Shown piece by piece: positions 11,273-37,042 of a DNA stretch of 64,000 nucleotides (position 1 is the first letter of the stretch; each line of letters opens with the position of its first letter). Below the pieces are notes generated by a model. It did not search any database and had not been told where the DNA came from. It was given only the letters and a program-made list of their open reading frames with translations. The stretch is from an uncultured Gemmatimonadales bacterium. Its GTDB lineage: Bacteria > Gemmatimonadota > Gemmatimonadetes > Gemmatimonadales > GWC2-71-9. Location of the stretch: assembly GCA_963730185.1 (NCBI GenBank), contig CAVSQW010000001.1:1-64000 (forward strand). The letters are read 5' to 3'. A program made the translations under genes and the position numbers.

Positions 11273-12043
11273 ATGGATCTTGGCACGCCGGCCCTGTTCC
11301 GCTGGGACGACCTTCCCCGCGAGGCGGTCACGCCGACCCTCGGCCGGAAGATCGTGACCGGCGAGCGAGTGATGATGGCGCACGTGTGGCTCGATCAGGG
11401 TTGCGTCGTGCCGGAGCACTCCCACGAGTCGGAGCAGCTGAGCTGGGTCTTCTCCGGCGCCCTCAAGTTCGTGATTGGCGGCGAGACGATCGTGGTCCGG
11501 GCCGGCGAGATCCTGGTGATCCCGTCCTGGGTCAAACACGAGGCGGTGGCGCTCGAGCCCACCTACGAGATGGACGTCTTCAACCCGATCCGCCGGGATT
11601 GGCTGGATGGGAGCGACTCCTACTTCAAGAAGCCGCCGACCCGGCCGGCCGATTTCACCAATCCGGCCAGCGGCGGCAATCCGGCCACCCTCCGGCGCTG
11701 GAGCGAGGTGACCGTCGAGCCGATGAACCCGATGATCGACCGGGCCTTCGCGACCGGCGAGCTCGCCACCGTCGCCAGGCTGGTGCTCAAGAAAGGCTGT
11801 GTGGTGCCGACCCACGCCCACGAGAGCGAACAGCTCACCTGGGTCCGCTCCGGTACCCTGCAGCTCGATCTGGGCGAGCAGCGGTTCGTGATCCCGGCTG
11901 GCTCGGTGCTCCGGATCCCGTCGCAGGTCCCCCACATGGCCACCGCGCTCGAGGCTTGCGAGGTGGTCGACGTGTTCGGTCCCCGGCGCGACGATTGGCT
12001 GTCCCAGTCCGATCAGTATCTCCGCCAGCCACCGGCGAAATAG
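11273..12043 (+). CDS. Tandem (double) cupin domain protein
   Basis: Two homologous halves, each with GCVVPxHxHESEQL and a downstream His. Confidence 0.85.
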   Translation: MDLGTPALFRWDDLPREAVTPTLGRKIVTGERVMMAHVWLDQGCVVPEHSHESEQLSWVFSGALKFVIGGETIVVRAGEILVIPSWVKHEAVALEPTYEMDVFNPIRRDWLDGSDSYFKKPPTRPADFTNPASGGNPATLRRWSEVTVEPMNPMIDRAFATGELATVARLVLKKGCVVPTHAHESEQLTWVRSGTLQLDLGEQRFVIPAGSVLRIPSQVPHMATALEACEVVDVFGPRRDDWLSQSDQYLRQPPAK

Positions 12044-12045
12044 TC

Positions 12046-13020
12046 ATGCGTGCCATCCGGGTGCATCAGTTCGGTGATCCCTCGGTCCTCACGCTCGACG
12101 AGGTACCGACGCCCGAGCCGGGGCCGGGGCAGGTGCAGGTCCGGATTCACGCGGCGGGCGTCAATCCGGTCGAGACCTACATCAGGAGCGGGCGCTACGC
12201 GAACCTGCCCACGCCGCCCTTCATTCCCGGGTCGGACGCCGCCGGCGTGGTCTCGGCCCTCGGCCGGGGCGTGACCCAATGGTCCACGGGCGATCGGGTC
12301 TTCTTCTTCGGGACCTCGGCGGGACGCTCGCTCGGCGCCTACGCCGAATACACGGTGTGCGATGCCAAGCTGGTGTTCCGGCTTCCGGACAGCGCGAGCT
12401 TCGCGCAGGGGGCGGCGCTCGGGGTGCCCTACGCCACCGCCCACCGAGCCCTGTTCGCCCGGGGCGGCGCGAAGGCGGGCGAAACGGTGATGGTCCACGG
12501 GGCCAGCGGCGGGGTGGGGCTCGCGGCGGTGCAGTTCGCCCGATGGGTCGGCCTGAACGTGGCGGGCACGGCCGGGACGGAAGAAGGTCTGGCCCTGGTC
12601 CGCGCCAGCGGCGCCCATGTGGCGGTGAGCCATCGCGCGCCGCTCTACCTCGATCAGATTCGCGCCGCCACCAGTGGCCGAGGCCCGGACCTGATCCTGG
12701 AGATGCTGGCCAACGTCAACCTGGATCACGACCTGGATCTGATTGCCCAGCAGGGACGGATCGTGATCATCGGCAATCGGGGTCGGGTTGAAATCGATCC
12801 GCGGAAGGTCATGTCGCGCGAGGCCGAGATCATCGGCGTGTTGCTCTGGCACGCGACGGACCAGGAGCTGGTGGAGAGCTACGCCGACGTGGTGGCGGGG
12901 CTCGAGAAGGGGGCGCTCCGGCCGGTCGTGGGTCGGGAGCTGCCGCTGGCGGATGCCGCCAAGGCGCACGATGCGGTCATGGCGCCGGGCTCGAAGGGGA
13001 AGGTCGTGCTGATTCCCTGA
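12046..13020 (+). CDS. NADPH:quinone reductase (zeta-crystallin/MDR family)
   Basis: AAGVNPVETYIRSG, PGSDAAG, HGASGGVG, GKVVL. Confidence 0.9.
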   Translation: MRAIRVHQFGDPSVLTLDEVPTPEPGPGQVQVRIHAAGVNPVETYIRSGRYANLPTPPFIPGSDAAGVVSALGRGVTQWSTGDRVFFFGTSAGRSLGAYAEYTVCDAKLVFRLPDSASFAQGAALGVPYATAHRALFARGGAKAGETVMVHGASGGVGLAAVQFARWVGLNVAGTAGTEEGLALVRASGAHVAVSHRAPLYLDQIRAATSGRGPDLILEMLANVNLDHDLDLIAQQGRIVIIGNRGRVEIDPRKVMSREAEIIGVLLWHATDQELVESYADVVAGLEKGALRPVVGRELPLADAAKAHDAVMAPGSKGKVVLIP

Positions 13021-13024
13021 GCTC

Positions 13025-13063
13025 AAAAGCGAAGACGCCGGACCGGGGGGATCCGACGTCTTC
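13025..13063 (-). terminator. Intrinsic terminator hairpin (may also stop the convergent quinone reductase mRNA)
   Basis: 12-bp stem GAAGACGTCGGA/TCCGGCGTCTTC followed by GCTTTT on the minus strand. Confidence 0.75.
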
Positions 13064-13142
13064 GGGGGGTTGATTCGAGCCCTGGGGGGAATCAGGTCAC
13101 GAACCGGGGGATTTTTGCGAGCCGACTCTCGCCGTCTCGCGC
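13025..13142 (-). ncRNA. Candidate novel small RNA with four C-rich motifs
   Basis: Lies between a sigma54-type promoter and an intrinsic terminator. Three hairpins, with G-U pairs that only work on the minus strand. No ORF with a convincing start. Confidence 0.6.
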
Positions 13143-13153
13143 CTCCCTAAGGG

Positions 13154-13168
13154 GCAAGGGGTGTGCCG
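13154..13168 (-). promoter_or_regulatory. Sigma54 (-24/-12) promoter
   Basis: CGGCAC-ACCCC-TTGC, exact GG-N10-GC spacing. Confidence 0.65.
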
Positions 13169-13343
13169 GGTTCCCGGCTGCCGAGACGACCCGGGCCTGG
13201 AGCCTCCAACTCCGTCAGGCACATAAGCTTAGTGCCATCCTTCCCGATCGTGACCGCGGTGCCGGCCCTCCCCTGCGGCCCCACCGACGCGACACCGGGT
13301 GTGGCTCCCCAGCCACGCTCCCACGCTCCCGAGAGGCTCGTTC

Positions 13344-14489
13344 ATGCGCCCCGCCCTGCTGATCGTCGTCTCCGCGCTCCTCGCCGCCCCGGCGCTGCTC
13401 GCCCAGGCGCCCCGGCCTCGAGCCCGCGACCTGGGCGTCGCGCCCGGCGTCTTCCCGACGGGCCGGTGGAACGCCATCACCGATGTCGCCGGGGTGAAGG
13501 TCGGTCAGACGACCGTGATCGAGGGCGACTCGATCCGAACCGGGGTCACGGCGATTCTCCCGCATCCCGGCAACCTGTTCTTCGATCGAGTGCCAGCCGC
13601 CATCGTGGTCGGAAACGGATTCGGCAAGCTGCTCGGGGTGACGCAGGTCGGAGAGCTTGGGGAGTTGGAGACGCCGATTCTCCTCACCTGCACGCTCTGT
13701 GTGTGGCGGGCCGCGGACGCGATGGTGGAATGGCTGCTGGCCCAACCCGGCATGGAGGACGTCCGGTCGATCAACCCGGTGGTGGGCGAAACCAACGACG
13801 GTGGGTTGAACGCGATTCGAGACCGCCCGATCACGCCGGCCGACGTCCGGGCCGCGCTCACGGGCGCGACGTCGGGGCCCGTGGAGGAGGGCACCGTGGG
13901 CGCCGGCACCGGCACCATCGCGTTCGGCTGGAAGGGAGGAATCGGCACCAGCTCGCGCCACCTGCCGGCCTCGCTCGGCGGGTGGACCGTGGGGGTGCTG
14001 GTCCAGACCAACTACGGCGGGATCCTGCAGATCCTCGGGGTCCCGGTTGGGAAAGCCCTGGGCCAGTATGCGTTCCGCCGTCAAGCAGAGAAGAACCCCG
14101 GCGCCGGGTCGATCATGATGGTGGTGGCGACCGACGCGCCGCTCAGCGACCGGAATCTGCGACGGATCGCGAACCGGGCCCTGATCGGGCTGGGACGTAC
14201 CGGCTCGTCGATGGGGAACGGTTCGGGCGACTACGTGATCGCGTTCTCGACCCATCCGGACGTCCGGCGCCCGGCCGCGGGCGGCGATACCCTCGGAACC
14301 GTCCGACGCGAGATCCTGAATCCGGACATGTCGGGCCTGTTCGAGGCGACCATCGAGGCCACCGAGGAGGCGATCTACAACTCGCTCTTCCGGGCCACGA
14401 CCGTCACCAGCCGGTACGGGACCGTGCCGGCGCTCCCGATCGACAAAGTGAGGGAGCTGCTCCGCGCCTATCGCGCGGCCGATCGTTAG
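13344..14489 (+). CDS. DmpA-like (P1/S58) aminopeptidase, secreted
   Basis: NAITDVAGVKVG, TGVTAILPH, NGFGK, VGAGTG, KGGIGTSSR, NGSGD autoproteolysis site. Signal peptide. Confidence 0.9.
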   Translation: MRPALLIVVSALLAAPALLAQAPRPRARDLGVAPGVFPTGRWNAITDVAGVKVGQTTVIEGDSIRTGVTAILPHPGNLFFDRVPAAIVVGNGFGKLLGVTQVGELGELETPILLTCTLCVWRAADAMVEWLLAQPGMEDVRSINPVVGETNDGGLNAIRDRPITPADVRAALTGATSGPVEEGTVGAGTGTIAFGWKGGIGTSSRHLPASLGGWTVGVLVQTNYGGILQILGVPVGKALGQYAFRRQAEKNPGAGSIMMVVATDAPLSDRNLRRIANRALIGLGRTGSSMGNGSGDYVIAFSTHPDVRRPAAGGDTLGTVRREILNPDMSGLFEATIEATEEAIYNSLFRATTVTSRYGTVPALPIDKVRELLRAYRAADR

Positions 14490-14492
14490 GCG

Positions 14493-14999
14493 TCAGCGCT
14501 CGAGATCGGGTGGATCGGCGGCCAGCACGGCGTGGATCGCCGCCACGACCTCGGCGTCGTCGCTCAGGAGCACCAGCTCTCCGCCCCGAGTCAGGGTTCG
14601 ATAGGTGCACCGAACCCGGTCACGGTTCTCGGCGATCACCCGAGCCGCCGGGCTGTTTCCGCGGACCAGCCGCACCCGGCGAAGGTCGCCGCGCCGGATG
14701 GCCGCCGCCGCCTCCAGCAGCTCCAACCGGACCGCCTCCACCGCCGCCGAATCGACGCCCCGGCTCTGGAGCGCGATGCTGCCGCCGCTCTCGTTGGCCA
14801 GGTAATGAATCCGCGGTGCAGCTCCGAGCGACCCGAGTGCAGAACTCTGCGCCGCTGCCCGGGTGGTCAGGAGGCAAACTGCGGTGACCACCAGCCACGC
14901 CACGACGCTCGGCCGCCACACCCGGCGTGAAACGCCGGGGCCGGGACGGAGCGAGCTAACTGGTGTCAGGTCGAGCGCTCTGGTCTGCTGGTCGGACAA
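14493..14999 (-). CDS. Hypothetical secreted protein (start uncertain)
   Basis: Signal-like hydrophobic segment ending AAA-Q, GG.I.LQ and RGGELVL segments, and an upstream sigma54 promoter. Confidence 0.55.
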   Translation of the reverse strand: MSDQQTRALDLTPVSSLRPGPGVSRRVWRPSVVAWLVVTAVCLLTTRAAAQSSALGSLGAAPRIHYLANESGGSIALQSRGVDSAAVEAVRLELLEAAAAIRRGDLRRVRLVRGNSPAARVIAENRDRVRCTYRTLTRGGELVLLSDDAEVVAAIHAVLAADPPDLER

Positions 15000-15038: not shown

Positions 15039-15053
15039 GCAAGGAGGGTGCCA
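15039..15053 (-). promoter_or_regulatory. Sigma54 (-24/-12) promoter
   Basis: TGGCAC-CCTCC-TTGC, near-perfect consensus, in intergenic DNA pointing at ORF 14493-14999. Confidence 0.7.
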
Positions 15054-18345: not shown

Positions 18346-19292
18346 CCGCGCTTCCGCTTCGGCGCCGGACGGCCCTTGAGGAACTGCTCCCAGCTGGGCT
18401 TGGCCCGGCTGGGGGCCGCCTTGGCCAGCCGGATCGCCATGTCGGCCATCGTCTTGACCACCCACTCGAAATGCCCCGGCGTCAGTGAGTAGATGTCCAT
18501 GTCGGGTGCCGGGTTCATGAAGTCGATGGCGTAGGGGATCCCGTCCCGGATCGCCCACTCCATCGAGTTCATGTCATAGCCCAGGGCCCGGACCAGGGTC
18601 AGGGAGTCGGCGACGATCCGCTGGTGCAGCTCCGGCGAAAGGAAATCGAGGTTCTCGTGGTACTTCCGCGACTTGGGATCGTACTTGATGGGGCGCACGA
18701 CCTCCCGGCCGATCGCCAGGCAGCGCACGAACTCGTCCCACTCGATGAACTCCTGCACGATCATCGTGAGGAGACCCGAGTGGTCGTAGTGGTGGAGCAG
18801 CTCATCGAGCGAGTGGCAGACGTAGACCTCTTTCCATCCGCCACCGTACGCGTCCTTGAGGATGCAGGGCAATCCCACGTGATCGACCACGGCTTGCCAG
18901 TCGAGCGGGAAGGCCAGGTTCCGAAGGCTCTCGGTGTGCACGATGCCGGGCACATACTCCTTGTTCGGGAGGAGCACCGTCTTGGGACTCGCCACGCCGA
19001 GCGAGGTCGCGAGCGTGGCCTCGAAGAACTTGTCGTCGGCCGACCACATGAAGGGGTTGTTGACGACCGTCACCCCCTGGAGCGCCGCATGCTTGAGGTA
19101 GGTCCGGTAGAACGGCACCTCGTGCGAGATCCGATCGATGATCACCCGATAATTCGCCGGATCGTCCATCCGGGGCGCGCCGAGCGCCACGAATTCGGCC
19201 GTGACCCCTTCGTTCCGCTGGTTGACTTCCTCGATGAAGGCCGGCGGCCAGCTCCACTCCCGACCCACGATCAACCCAATCTTGTTCGCCAT
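18342..19292 (-). CDS. RimK-like ATP-grasp ligase
   Basis: IIDRISH, VNNPF..ADDKF, ILKDAYGGGWK, QEFIEW, AIDFMNPAPD. Confidence 0.82.
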   Translation of the reverse strand: MANKIGLIVGREWSWPPAFIEEVNQRNEGVTAEFVALGAPRMDDPANYRVIIDRISHEVPFYRTYLKHAALQGVTVVNNPFMWSADDKFFEATLATSLGVASPKTVLLPNKEYVPGIVHTESLRNLAFPLDWQAVVDHVGLPCILKDAYGGGWKEVYVCHSLDELLHHYDHSGLLTMIVQEFIEWDEFVRCLAIGREVVRPIKYDPKSRKYHENLDFLSPELHQRIVADSLTLVRALGYDMNSMEWAIRDGIPYAIDFMNPAPDMDIYSLTPGHFEWVVKTMADMAIRLAKAAPSRAKPSWEQFLKGRPAPKRKRG

Positions 19293-35035: not shown

Positions 35036-35240
35036 CTCGTCTTCTCCCGGTCAGGGGGGCCCGCCGTCCGTCGTGACGCATCGGACGTTAGGATTCGGGC
35101 GGCGGGCCAACAAGTTGGGAAGAAGCCTGGCCTTTCCCCCTGGGAGTTTTCCTGGGTCCCCTGCCGCCGAAGGGGCCTAGGCACGGCCTGAAATCCGGCG
35201 GAGGTTGCTCACGGTGGTTCGGAGGCGATAGGATTCGAGT

Positions 35241-37042
<1,802 letters not shown>

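Follow-up and report, generated by a model that had tools for sequence, protein, structure and literature searches.

Small RNAs that display C-rich sequences in or beside hairpin loops have been described in Actinobacteria, Alphaproteobacteria and Firmicutes. The 6C RNA of Mycobacterium tuberculosis has three loops, the second and third of which are C-rich and conserved, and these loops are reported to pair with G-rich sites such as the AGGGGGG ribosome binding site of panD without Hfq or ProQ (PMC6486639); in Corynebacterium glutamicum, 6C is described with a SigA/SigB promoter (PMC5014011). In the cuckoo or alpha-r14 RNAs, which have two to four adjacent hairpins, the stems vary, whereas a C-rich motif is conserved and exposed in each hairpin; among them, ar14/NfeR1 RNAs are described with three hairpins, and NfeR1 is reported to act independently of Hfq and to be connected with a nitrogen two-component system (PMC4615179, PMC10746234). 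For Firmicutes, it has been proposed that C-rich loop motifs of the UCCC type generally mark RNAs whose pairing partners are ribosome binding sites (PMC4615179). In this study, we analysed a stretch of 64,000 nucleotides, referred to as the window, from an uncultured Gemmatimonadales bacterium (GenBank assembly GCA_963730185.1, contig CAVSQW010000001.1, positions 1 to 64,000), small shares of which are present in seven soil DNA runs. At about 13142 to 13025 on its minus strand we find an element that, with high probability, is a genuine gene for a small regulatory RNA, with a sigma-54 promoter and exposed C-runs. The RNA family is new, and its kind is already familiar.

The sigma-54 promoter consensus has GG at -24 and GC at -12 at a fixed spacing (TGGCAC-N5-TTGC type), and transcription of the small RNA CrcZ depends on sigma-54, as does that of Qrr and NrsZ; all three act with or on Hfq. 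Sigma-54 dependence is described for Qrr1-5 with LuxO (bioRxiv 10.1101/2021.07.01.450815), and for NrsZ with NtrBC (PMC4253122); CrcZ is described together with CbrB (PMC6296734) and as an RNA that regulates Hfq (PMC4063720). The RNA of the window resembles these three systems in its -24/-12 promoter, which would need an enhancer-binding protein, so that the RNA would report one specific signal. It differs from them in lacking any sequence or structural likeness and any Rfam match to their families, in that its activator is not linked to the locus, and in that Hfq (PF17209) was found in none of the 22 genus genomes, a set that includes 14 with a completeness of 90% or more. A literature search on small RNAs of Gemmatimonadetes and Gemmatimonas found none described in Gemmatimonadota.

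Predicted transcript and promoter

The source assembly (G000) comprises 5.27 Mb with 69.5% G+C and is 81.8% complete. In the window, a spacer of 323 nt separates two plus-strand genes, which encode a dehydrogenase and a secreted peptidase, and contains the small RNA locus. The sigma-54-type promoter cGGCAC-ACCCC-TTGC (-24 GG, -12 GC) is read on the minus strand at 13167 to 13154, where the preliminary description, a reading of this DNA that preceded the analysis, had placed it, and the promoter spacing would put the 5' end of the RNA near 13142, again as proposed there. The 3' end is predicted from a hairpin followed by UUUU. The result is a predicted minus-strand RNA of approximately 118 nt (13142 to 13025, approximate), close to the 120 nt first suggested. 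Two covariance models, R1 and R2, described below, recover it in 19 of 22 genus genomes and six metagenome contigs, and the promoter, the three covarying hairpins and the exposed C-runs described below support this prediction.

Folding of the minus strand with RNAfold resulted in three hairpins with an energy of -54.7 kcal/mol and a z-score of -3.35 (200 shuffles). Hairpin 1 begins twelve bases beyond the promoter and spans 13140 to 13117 on the minus strand, like all parts of the RNA (GCGAG-A-CGGC-GAGA-GUCG-G-CUCGC; 5+4 bp with a GAGA loop). It is followed by linker 1 (AAAAAUCCCCC, 13116 to 13106), which contains a C-run, by hairpin 2 (13105 to 13072) with the loop AUUCCCCC and 6+4 (up to 11) pairs, and by linker 2 (AACCCCCC, 13071 to 13064). 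Hairpin 3 (13063 to 13031) is terminator-like, with 14 bp, two of them U-G pairs, and a 5-nt CCCCC loop, and precedes GCUUUU at 13030 to 13025 (U run at 13028 to 13025). The same three hairpins had been drawn at the outset; their stem lengths required correction, that of hairpin 3 from 12 bp to 14 bp and that of hairpin 2 to the number of pairs given above. The four runs of five to six C, spaced about 20 nt apart and read as largely unpaired from the beginning, lie at 13110-13106, 13089-13084, 13069-13064 and 13050-13045, and their predicted unpaired probability is 0.81-0.99, compared with 0.39 for the RNA as a whole.

One G-U pair in hairpin 2 and two U-G pairs in hairpin 3 favour the minus strand, as already argued in the preliminary description, and the plus strand folds no better than its shuffles (z +0.77). 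Among the homologues described below, 62 of 634 pair cells are G-U, which corresponds to A-C on the plus strand, and because of these cells, together with the promoter, the minus strand can be fixed as the RNA strand. A plus-strand element or G-quadruplex was rejected on the basis of the fold and the G-U pairs. A coding function of the small RNA was also rejected, as the sequence contains no ATG and its sole GTG meets a stop after one further codon; an overlapping minus-strand open reading frame (ORF) of 337 aa is a shadow of the dehydrogenase gene.

Each taken alone, the promoter motif and the cluster of C-runs are within chance in one sequence. In the window, two occurrences of the promoter pattern compare with an expectation of 0.72, and 19 of 100 shuffles reach two; the genome has 50 occurrences, and base composition predicts about 93. 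Clusters of at least four runs of C5 or more number 29 genome-wide, mostly within simple repeats. A reading in which the locus holds no RNA gene of its own would take the hairpins as a terminator of the dehydrogenase gene, possibly a bidirectional one, or as a G-rich element of its 3' untranslated region (UTR) with a possible G-quadruplex; a protein bound at the promoter-like motif would then serve the divergent peptidase gene. Such a reading agrees with the chance level of the promoter motif in a single genome, with the position of hairpin 3 directly after the dehydrogenase stop codon, and with the C-rich and G-rich simple repeats that are common in the intergenic DNA of G000. It is at odds with the poor fold of the plus strand and with the G-U cells on the minus strand. 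The feature as a whole exceeds chance because it is conserved and covaries in 24 other copies.

Conservation within one genus

Related spacers were found with blastn in genomes of the same genus, and a covariance model (R1) was built from ten of them. R1 gave one strong match per genome, with 36-116 bits, in 19 of the 22 genus genomes, and no match in G013 (97% complete), G019 (87%) and G020 (84%). The homologue search in Gemmatimonadota that had been suggested for this locus thereby found promoter, C-loops and stems conserved in these 19 genomes. A scan with the exact pattern across one genome per prokaryote species yielded 31 loci, 13 of which are real by R1 and all within the genus; the other 18 scored at most 17 bits or nothing, and one of them, when inspected, was coding DNA. 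In metagenome contigs, the same pattern gave 27 loci, of which seven are real and six of these new. The 25 copies considered in the following comprise the 19 genus genomes and the six metagenome contigs, and their hosts are uncultured Gemmatimonadales/Gemmatimonadota metagenome-assembled genomes, which agrees with the phylum assumed in the preliminary description.

Outside the genus, R1 gave eight weak matches in other genera of an order-level sample of 151 genomes, all promoterless and located in terminators or coding DNA, and no such element was present upstream of the S58 peptidase orthologue in 28 other genera of the family (G179 and G209 are counted in this tally only). Paralogues in G000 were not detected by blastn, and R1 gave one partial match of 23 bits. 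As far as searched, the RNA family is limited to one uncultured Gemmatimonadales soil genus.

The copies occur in three forms. The long form measures approximately 118-125 nt and has three hairpins, a mid form with different stem sequences is present in G002, G009 and G018, and G001, G008, G011 and G012 carry a short form, about 75 nt in length, that has two hairpins and as many C-runs. Three hairpins are predicted in 20 of the 21 long and mid forms, the remaining one, in G007, having four, and two hairpins in all four short forms. Nine homologues folded singly showed the same architecture, with z-scores from -3.98 to -8.77. The promoter GGCA[CT]-N5-TTGC with sigma-54 spacing is present in 25 of 25 copies, GGCA and TTGC being invariant, and sits 12-16 nt ahead of hairpin 1.

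For the analysis of covariation, the long and mid forms were aligned with a second model (R2), which consists of the RNA of the window alone with its three hairpins. Of the 21 loci given, 20 passed the threshold of E 1e-5; G018 was dropped owing to a partial match, and the four short forms were left out. This alignment was fitted to the structure and hence favours it. Standard pairing is seen in 97.3% of its 634 pair cells, both partners have changed in 23 of 33 pairs (118 cells), and none of 500 shuffles reached any of the five measures. When the partners were slid by one to three columns, pairing fell to 24-49%. An independent alignment and fold with MAFFT/RNAalifold recovered hairpins 2 and 3, with compensatory change in four of 19 pairs.

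The individual parts of the RNA vary to different degrees. Hairpin 1 is variable in sequence between genomes and kept in structure, with changes on both sides in nine of nine pairs; every homologue forms a 5' hairpin when folded by itself. In hairpin 2, eight of ten pairs change on both sides, and the motif YCCCCCAG is present in all subtypes. Hairpin 3 is the most conserved part, six of its 14 stem pairs changing on both sides and seven never varying. The loop C-runs of hairpins 2 and 3 are mostly unpaired with a probability of 0.7-1.0 in the 25 copies, compared with 0.31-0.46 overall; for the hairpin-2 loop C-run the value is 0.80-0.84 in 20 of the 21 long and mid forms, G017 being the exception with 0.5. 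Linker 2 keeps a run of three to seven C in the long and mid forms, and the C-run of linker 1 is partly conserved, being absent or short in G016 and G017. Returning to the reading without an RNA gene, three covarying hairpins exceed what a terminator needs, and the sigma-54 spacing is invariant in all copies, including the five of 19 loci that have no peptidase gene. We therefore regard that reading as very unlikely.

Likeness to described RNA families

In Rfam 15, no family matched the small RNA at its gathering score, in agreement with the preliminary description, which had recognised no family; what it had missed is the closest analogue, the actinobacterial 6C. At permissive thresholds, the 6C model (RF01066) scored 29.9 bits against a cut-off of 47, full-length over hairpins 2 and 3 of the window RNA, and the Streptomyces Scr3202 model (RF02833) 28.7 against 52 bits. 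The homologues reached 24-39 bits with the 6C and Scr3202 models, RF01066 giving 26.5-32.4 bits at the homologue loci. Genus-wide, RF01066 exceeded its cut-off in none of the 22 genomes, and because the weak matches lay mostly at unrelated loci, the likeness is at background level for G+C-rich genomes. The C. glutamicum control in this search was detected, yet it also remained below the cut-off. Membership in the 6C family was rejected on these sub-threshold scores throughout.

In functional terms, 6C and the cuckoo RNAs come close to the RNA of the window. With 6C (including Mycobacterium B11), the RNA shares a small size, a high-GC host without Hfq, and three stem-loops of which the first is variable and the last two have C-run loops; as in the 6C type, hairpins 2 and 3 are adjacent and carry C6 runs in or at their loops. 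It differs in its occurrence in Gemmatimonadota instead of Actinobacteria, in its sigma-54-type instead of SigA/SigB promoter, and in its additional linker C-runs. The likeness to 6C is probably convergent.

The cuckoo RNAs (NfeR1, CcsR/RSs0680; RF02344) are similar in that the number of hairpins varies among relatives, comparable to the three- and two-hairpin forms found here. However, their defining motif CCUCCUCCC is missing from the window RNA, in which the motif is a plain run of five to eight C; RF02344 scored 18.8-22.8 against 58.8 bits, in five of 19 loci. Cuckoo RNAs are multi-copy, whereas the present RNA is single copy per genome, and the NfeR1 promoter, in the form given in its source with the motif tail ...N17-CTATAT, is not of the sigma-54 type found here. 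The UCCC-loop RNAs of Firmicutes (RNAIII, Rsa RNAs) also have C-rich motifs in hairpin loops, but differ in sequence, taxon and promoter and have a shorter motif. Thus, after 6C in Actinobacteria and cuckoo in Alphaproteobacteria, this family is a third, apparently independent case of variable hairpins displaying C-rich seeds. A small RNA family of this kind introduces no new principle. Its occurrence in a host that lacks Hfq lends support to the view that high-GC bacteria use G-C-rich seed pairing in place of chaperones, and as a covarying family with a readable promoter it offers an entry point for work on sigma-54 signalling and post-transcriptional control in Gemmatimonadota, a phylum widespread in soil.

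Upstream region, neighbouring genes and possible modes of action

An inverted repeat, GCCACA-N5-TGTCGC (13289 to 13305, no strand given; family consensus CCACA-N4-7-TGTGG), is a candidate site for the activator, i.e., an enhancer-binding protein. It lies approximately 123-137 nt upstream of the -24 GG in 18 of the 24 copies with enough upstream DNA, the remaining six retaining its left half, and its chance rate is about 0.002 per 60-nt window. The repeat keeps its distance in loci that have an upstream gene other than that of the S58 peptidase, e.g., crcB in G016, and a genus-wide scan for the exact combination of repeat and promoter matched small RNA loci only (four matches; none in the reversed control). 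Between repeat and promoter, an A/T-richer stretch (13201 to 13240, minus strand, from the A+T profile) may be a DNA-bending region with an IHF-like role; the mean A+T content of 24 copies peaks at 0.48-0.52 at -60 to -30, compared with 0.27-0.38 in the flanks. A distal repeat, an A/T-rich stretch and a -24/-12 element are the usual layout of an enhancer-dependent sigma-54 promoter, which the upstream repeat and the A/T-rich stretch fit.

The A/T-richer region of the window also contains a palindrome, GGCACTAAGCTTATGTGCC at 13218-13236, which occurs only in G000 and, with mismatches, in the closest metagenome relative. Elsewhere in G000, a look-alike of the repeat with two mismatches at C11:22638-22790 (+) was considered as a clue to the activator and rejected as too weak to use. 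The same region contains a good sigma-54-like site, GGCACCAAGATTGC, with an A/T-rich stretch upstream, and precedes an operon encoding a secreted protein, a membrane protein with a possible sensor role and, as the last gene, a bacterial enhancer-binding protein (bEBP).

By analogy to the described C-rich RNAs, we propose a signal-gated, trans-acting RNA that pairs via its exposed C-runs without a chaperone, a function for which we see the case as evenly balanced. The promoter motif, the fold and its covariation, the exposure of the C-runs and the conservation are shown by the present data; we infer transcription, the activator and its site, both ends of the RNA, the base pairing and every target, and the course of events might be as follows. 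RNA polymerase with sigma-54 would bind GGCAC-N5-TTGC, and an enhancer-binding protein, probably located at the inverted repeat near -130 and helped by the A/T-rich bend region, would open the promoter on some signal. The transcript of about 118 nt would then fold into its three hairpins, the first of which would be a variable structural module, whereas hairpins 2 and 3, together with linker 2, would display single-stranded runs of five to eight C. These runs may provide the seeds for pairing with G-rich mRNA segments, typically at ribosome binding sites, as in 6C, cuckoo/ar14 and the UCCC-loop RNAs. Hfq is proposed to be unneeded because a few G-C pairs would be strong enough in a high-GC organism.

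Several results weigh against this proposal. Concerning the promoter, rpoN (Sigma54_DBD, PF04552) had no match in the 81.8%-complete G000, and no bEBP gene was found within 30 kb of the RNA gene in five genomes. The rpoN gene is present in 40 of 40 relatives, and its lack in G000 is probably an assembly gap; G000 has 22 matches to Sigma54_activat (PF00158), about 15 of them full-length. Concerning the activator site, G013, which has neither the RNA nor the promoter nor the S58 gene, retains the inverted repeat about 55 nt past the dehydrogenase stop codon, and because of this persistence the repeat may be a relic or have another role. Concerning the 3' end, a simple terminator scan that needs five T in eight was negative for hairpin 3, which has four U, and the U run, short in the window RNA and longer in some homologues, is missing from the four short forms. 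The target search, which took its gene starts from a rough gene caller written for the purpose, also speaks against the proposal. Ahead of start codons in G000, G6 runs show no enrichment (20 versus 21-27 in control windows), and the 21 annotated genes with a G6 run at the ribosome binding site share no functional theme. The G6 run before the ATG at 19292, named at the outset as an example target, is peculiar to G000, a run of G5 or more being kept in none of 18 orthologues; in two further candidates, the G-run is kept in zero of three and three of 18 across the genus. A ranking by duplex energy was noise-like and dominated by GC content. Target prediction, one of the follow-ups originally suggested, thus ended with no target found, all three candidates failing on conservation.

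Further results of this search concern the genes themselves. GGAGG precedes the starts of 462 genes, compared with 142 in control windows, which indicates ordinary ribosome binding sites, and a G6 run lies close to a possible start in about 30 genes. The protein encoded at 19292 had been labelled as ATP-grasp, a name that Pfam does not return at E 1e-5. As a side observation, G013 is the smallest genome of the genus; its repeat lies at L228 (G013:C17), 2535-2549, with Peptidase_C26 following directly, which looks like a deletion.

The neighbouring genes suggest another mode of action. Downstream of the RNA and convergent to it lies the dehydrogenase gene (12037 to 13020, plus strand; Pfam ADH_N, ADH_zinc_N), which is of the zinc-type alcohol dehydrogenase/quinone oxidoreductase-like type. 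Its stop codon lies 5 nt from the U run of the RNA in the window and 3-15 nt from hairpin 3 across all copies, and the 3' UTR of the gene is therefore necessarily antisense to hairpin 3. The RNA could therefore be a cis-antisense regulator of this gene: induction by sigma-54 would lead to loop-loop kissing and a duplex that alters the stability of the dehydrogenase mRNA, or to interference by convergent transcription. The dehydrogenase mRNA must cross the complement of hairpin 3 and possibly those of hairpins 2 and 1, the G-runs of its 3' UTR are perfectly complementary to the RNA, and read-through into the dehydrogenase gene is plausible because the short forms have no U run. In addition, the gene is kept in 25 of 25 loci, though the upstream neighbour has changed in five of 19. 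However, complementarity in cis holds for any sequence and leaves the conserved exposed C-runs on variable stems unexplained. The wider neighbourhood is syntenic across the genus, so the linkage may reflect relatedness only, and G013 has the dehydrogenase gene without the RNA. Regulation in cis is an unlikely alternative to pairing in trans, yet one that merits attention.

On the other side, the divergent gene for a secreted Peptidase_S58 (DmpA-like) starts with the ATG at 13344 and extends to 14489 on the plus strand (Pfam E 4.9e-111). It is located upstream of the RNA gene in 14 of the 19 genus loci, the other five having a different neighbour. In G018 (L060, G018:C313, 1902-2041), two short S58 fragments are left upstream of the RNA gene, so that the peptidase gene there has decayed or been deleted.

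Exposed C-runs might also bind protein. The three or four C-runs could titrate a C-binding protein when the promoter fires, for instance a KH, cold-shock or S1-type protein, or Rho, of which several copies or subunits would be bound. The motifs are repeated, regularly spaced and exposed, hairpin 3 is conserved beyond the need of a terminator (seven of 12 core pairs never vary), and the searches for a base-pairing target found none. CrcZ, with its sigma-54-dependent transcription, provides a precedent for such a sponge (Hfq regulation, PMC4063720). The preliminary description had added CsrB/RsmY as analogues, a comparison that does not hold, since CsrA (PF02599) was found in none of six genomes and the loops lack GGA. 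No candidate protein emerged, and genes for Hfq and CsrA were not found (0/22 and 0/6 genomes); the short forms have two C-runs only, and known sponges carry more motifs than this RNA does. We consider a protein sponge improbable, with trans-acting pairing remaining the preferred function.

Simple repeat arrays were observed at approximately 20 intergenic loci of G000 outside the window. Their units are C-rich and measure about 7 to 11 nt (CATCTCCCCCC, CGTCCCTCCCC and similar), with examples at C15:451309-451388, C7:480014-480123, C7:514968-515124 and C15:581612-581772. Often a C-rich arm is faced by a G-rich one, which would allow long hairpins to form, and one array lies between convergent genes. 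One array unit, GUCUCCCCCC, is identical to the hairpin-2 loop of most small RNA homologues.

This identity of a homologue loop with one repeat unit links the arrays to a further idea, namely that the RNA is no classical seed-pairing regulator but a sigma-54-gated decoy whose spaced C-runs capture a G-rich or C-binding partner particular to these bacteria. A protein with affinity for single-stranded C-rich sequence could be the partner, as could RNA transcribed from the G-rich arms of the arrays. We rate this idea as quite doubtful; if true, the regulatory circuit would be a new one, in a phylum from which no small RNA has been characterised.

Two other elements of the window remain to be mentioned. 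A second sigma-54-like site, GGCACCCTCCTTGC, lies at 15039-15052 on the minus strand, just upstream of a 168-aa minus-strand ORF (14493-14999) without a Pfam family, which sits between the S58 and Peptidase_C26 genes. A thiamine pyrophosphate (TPP) riboswitch (RF00059) at 35237-35339 on the plus strand, with 55.6 bits against a gathering score of 54.3, is the sole Rfam match at gathering score in the window.

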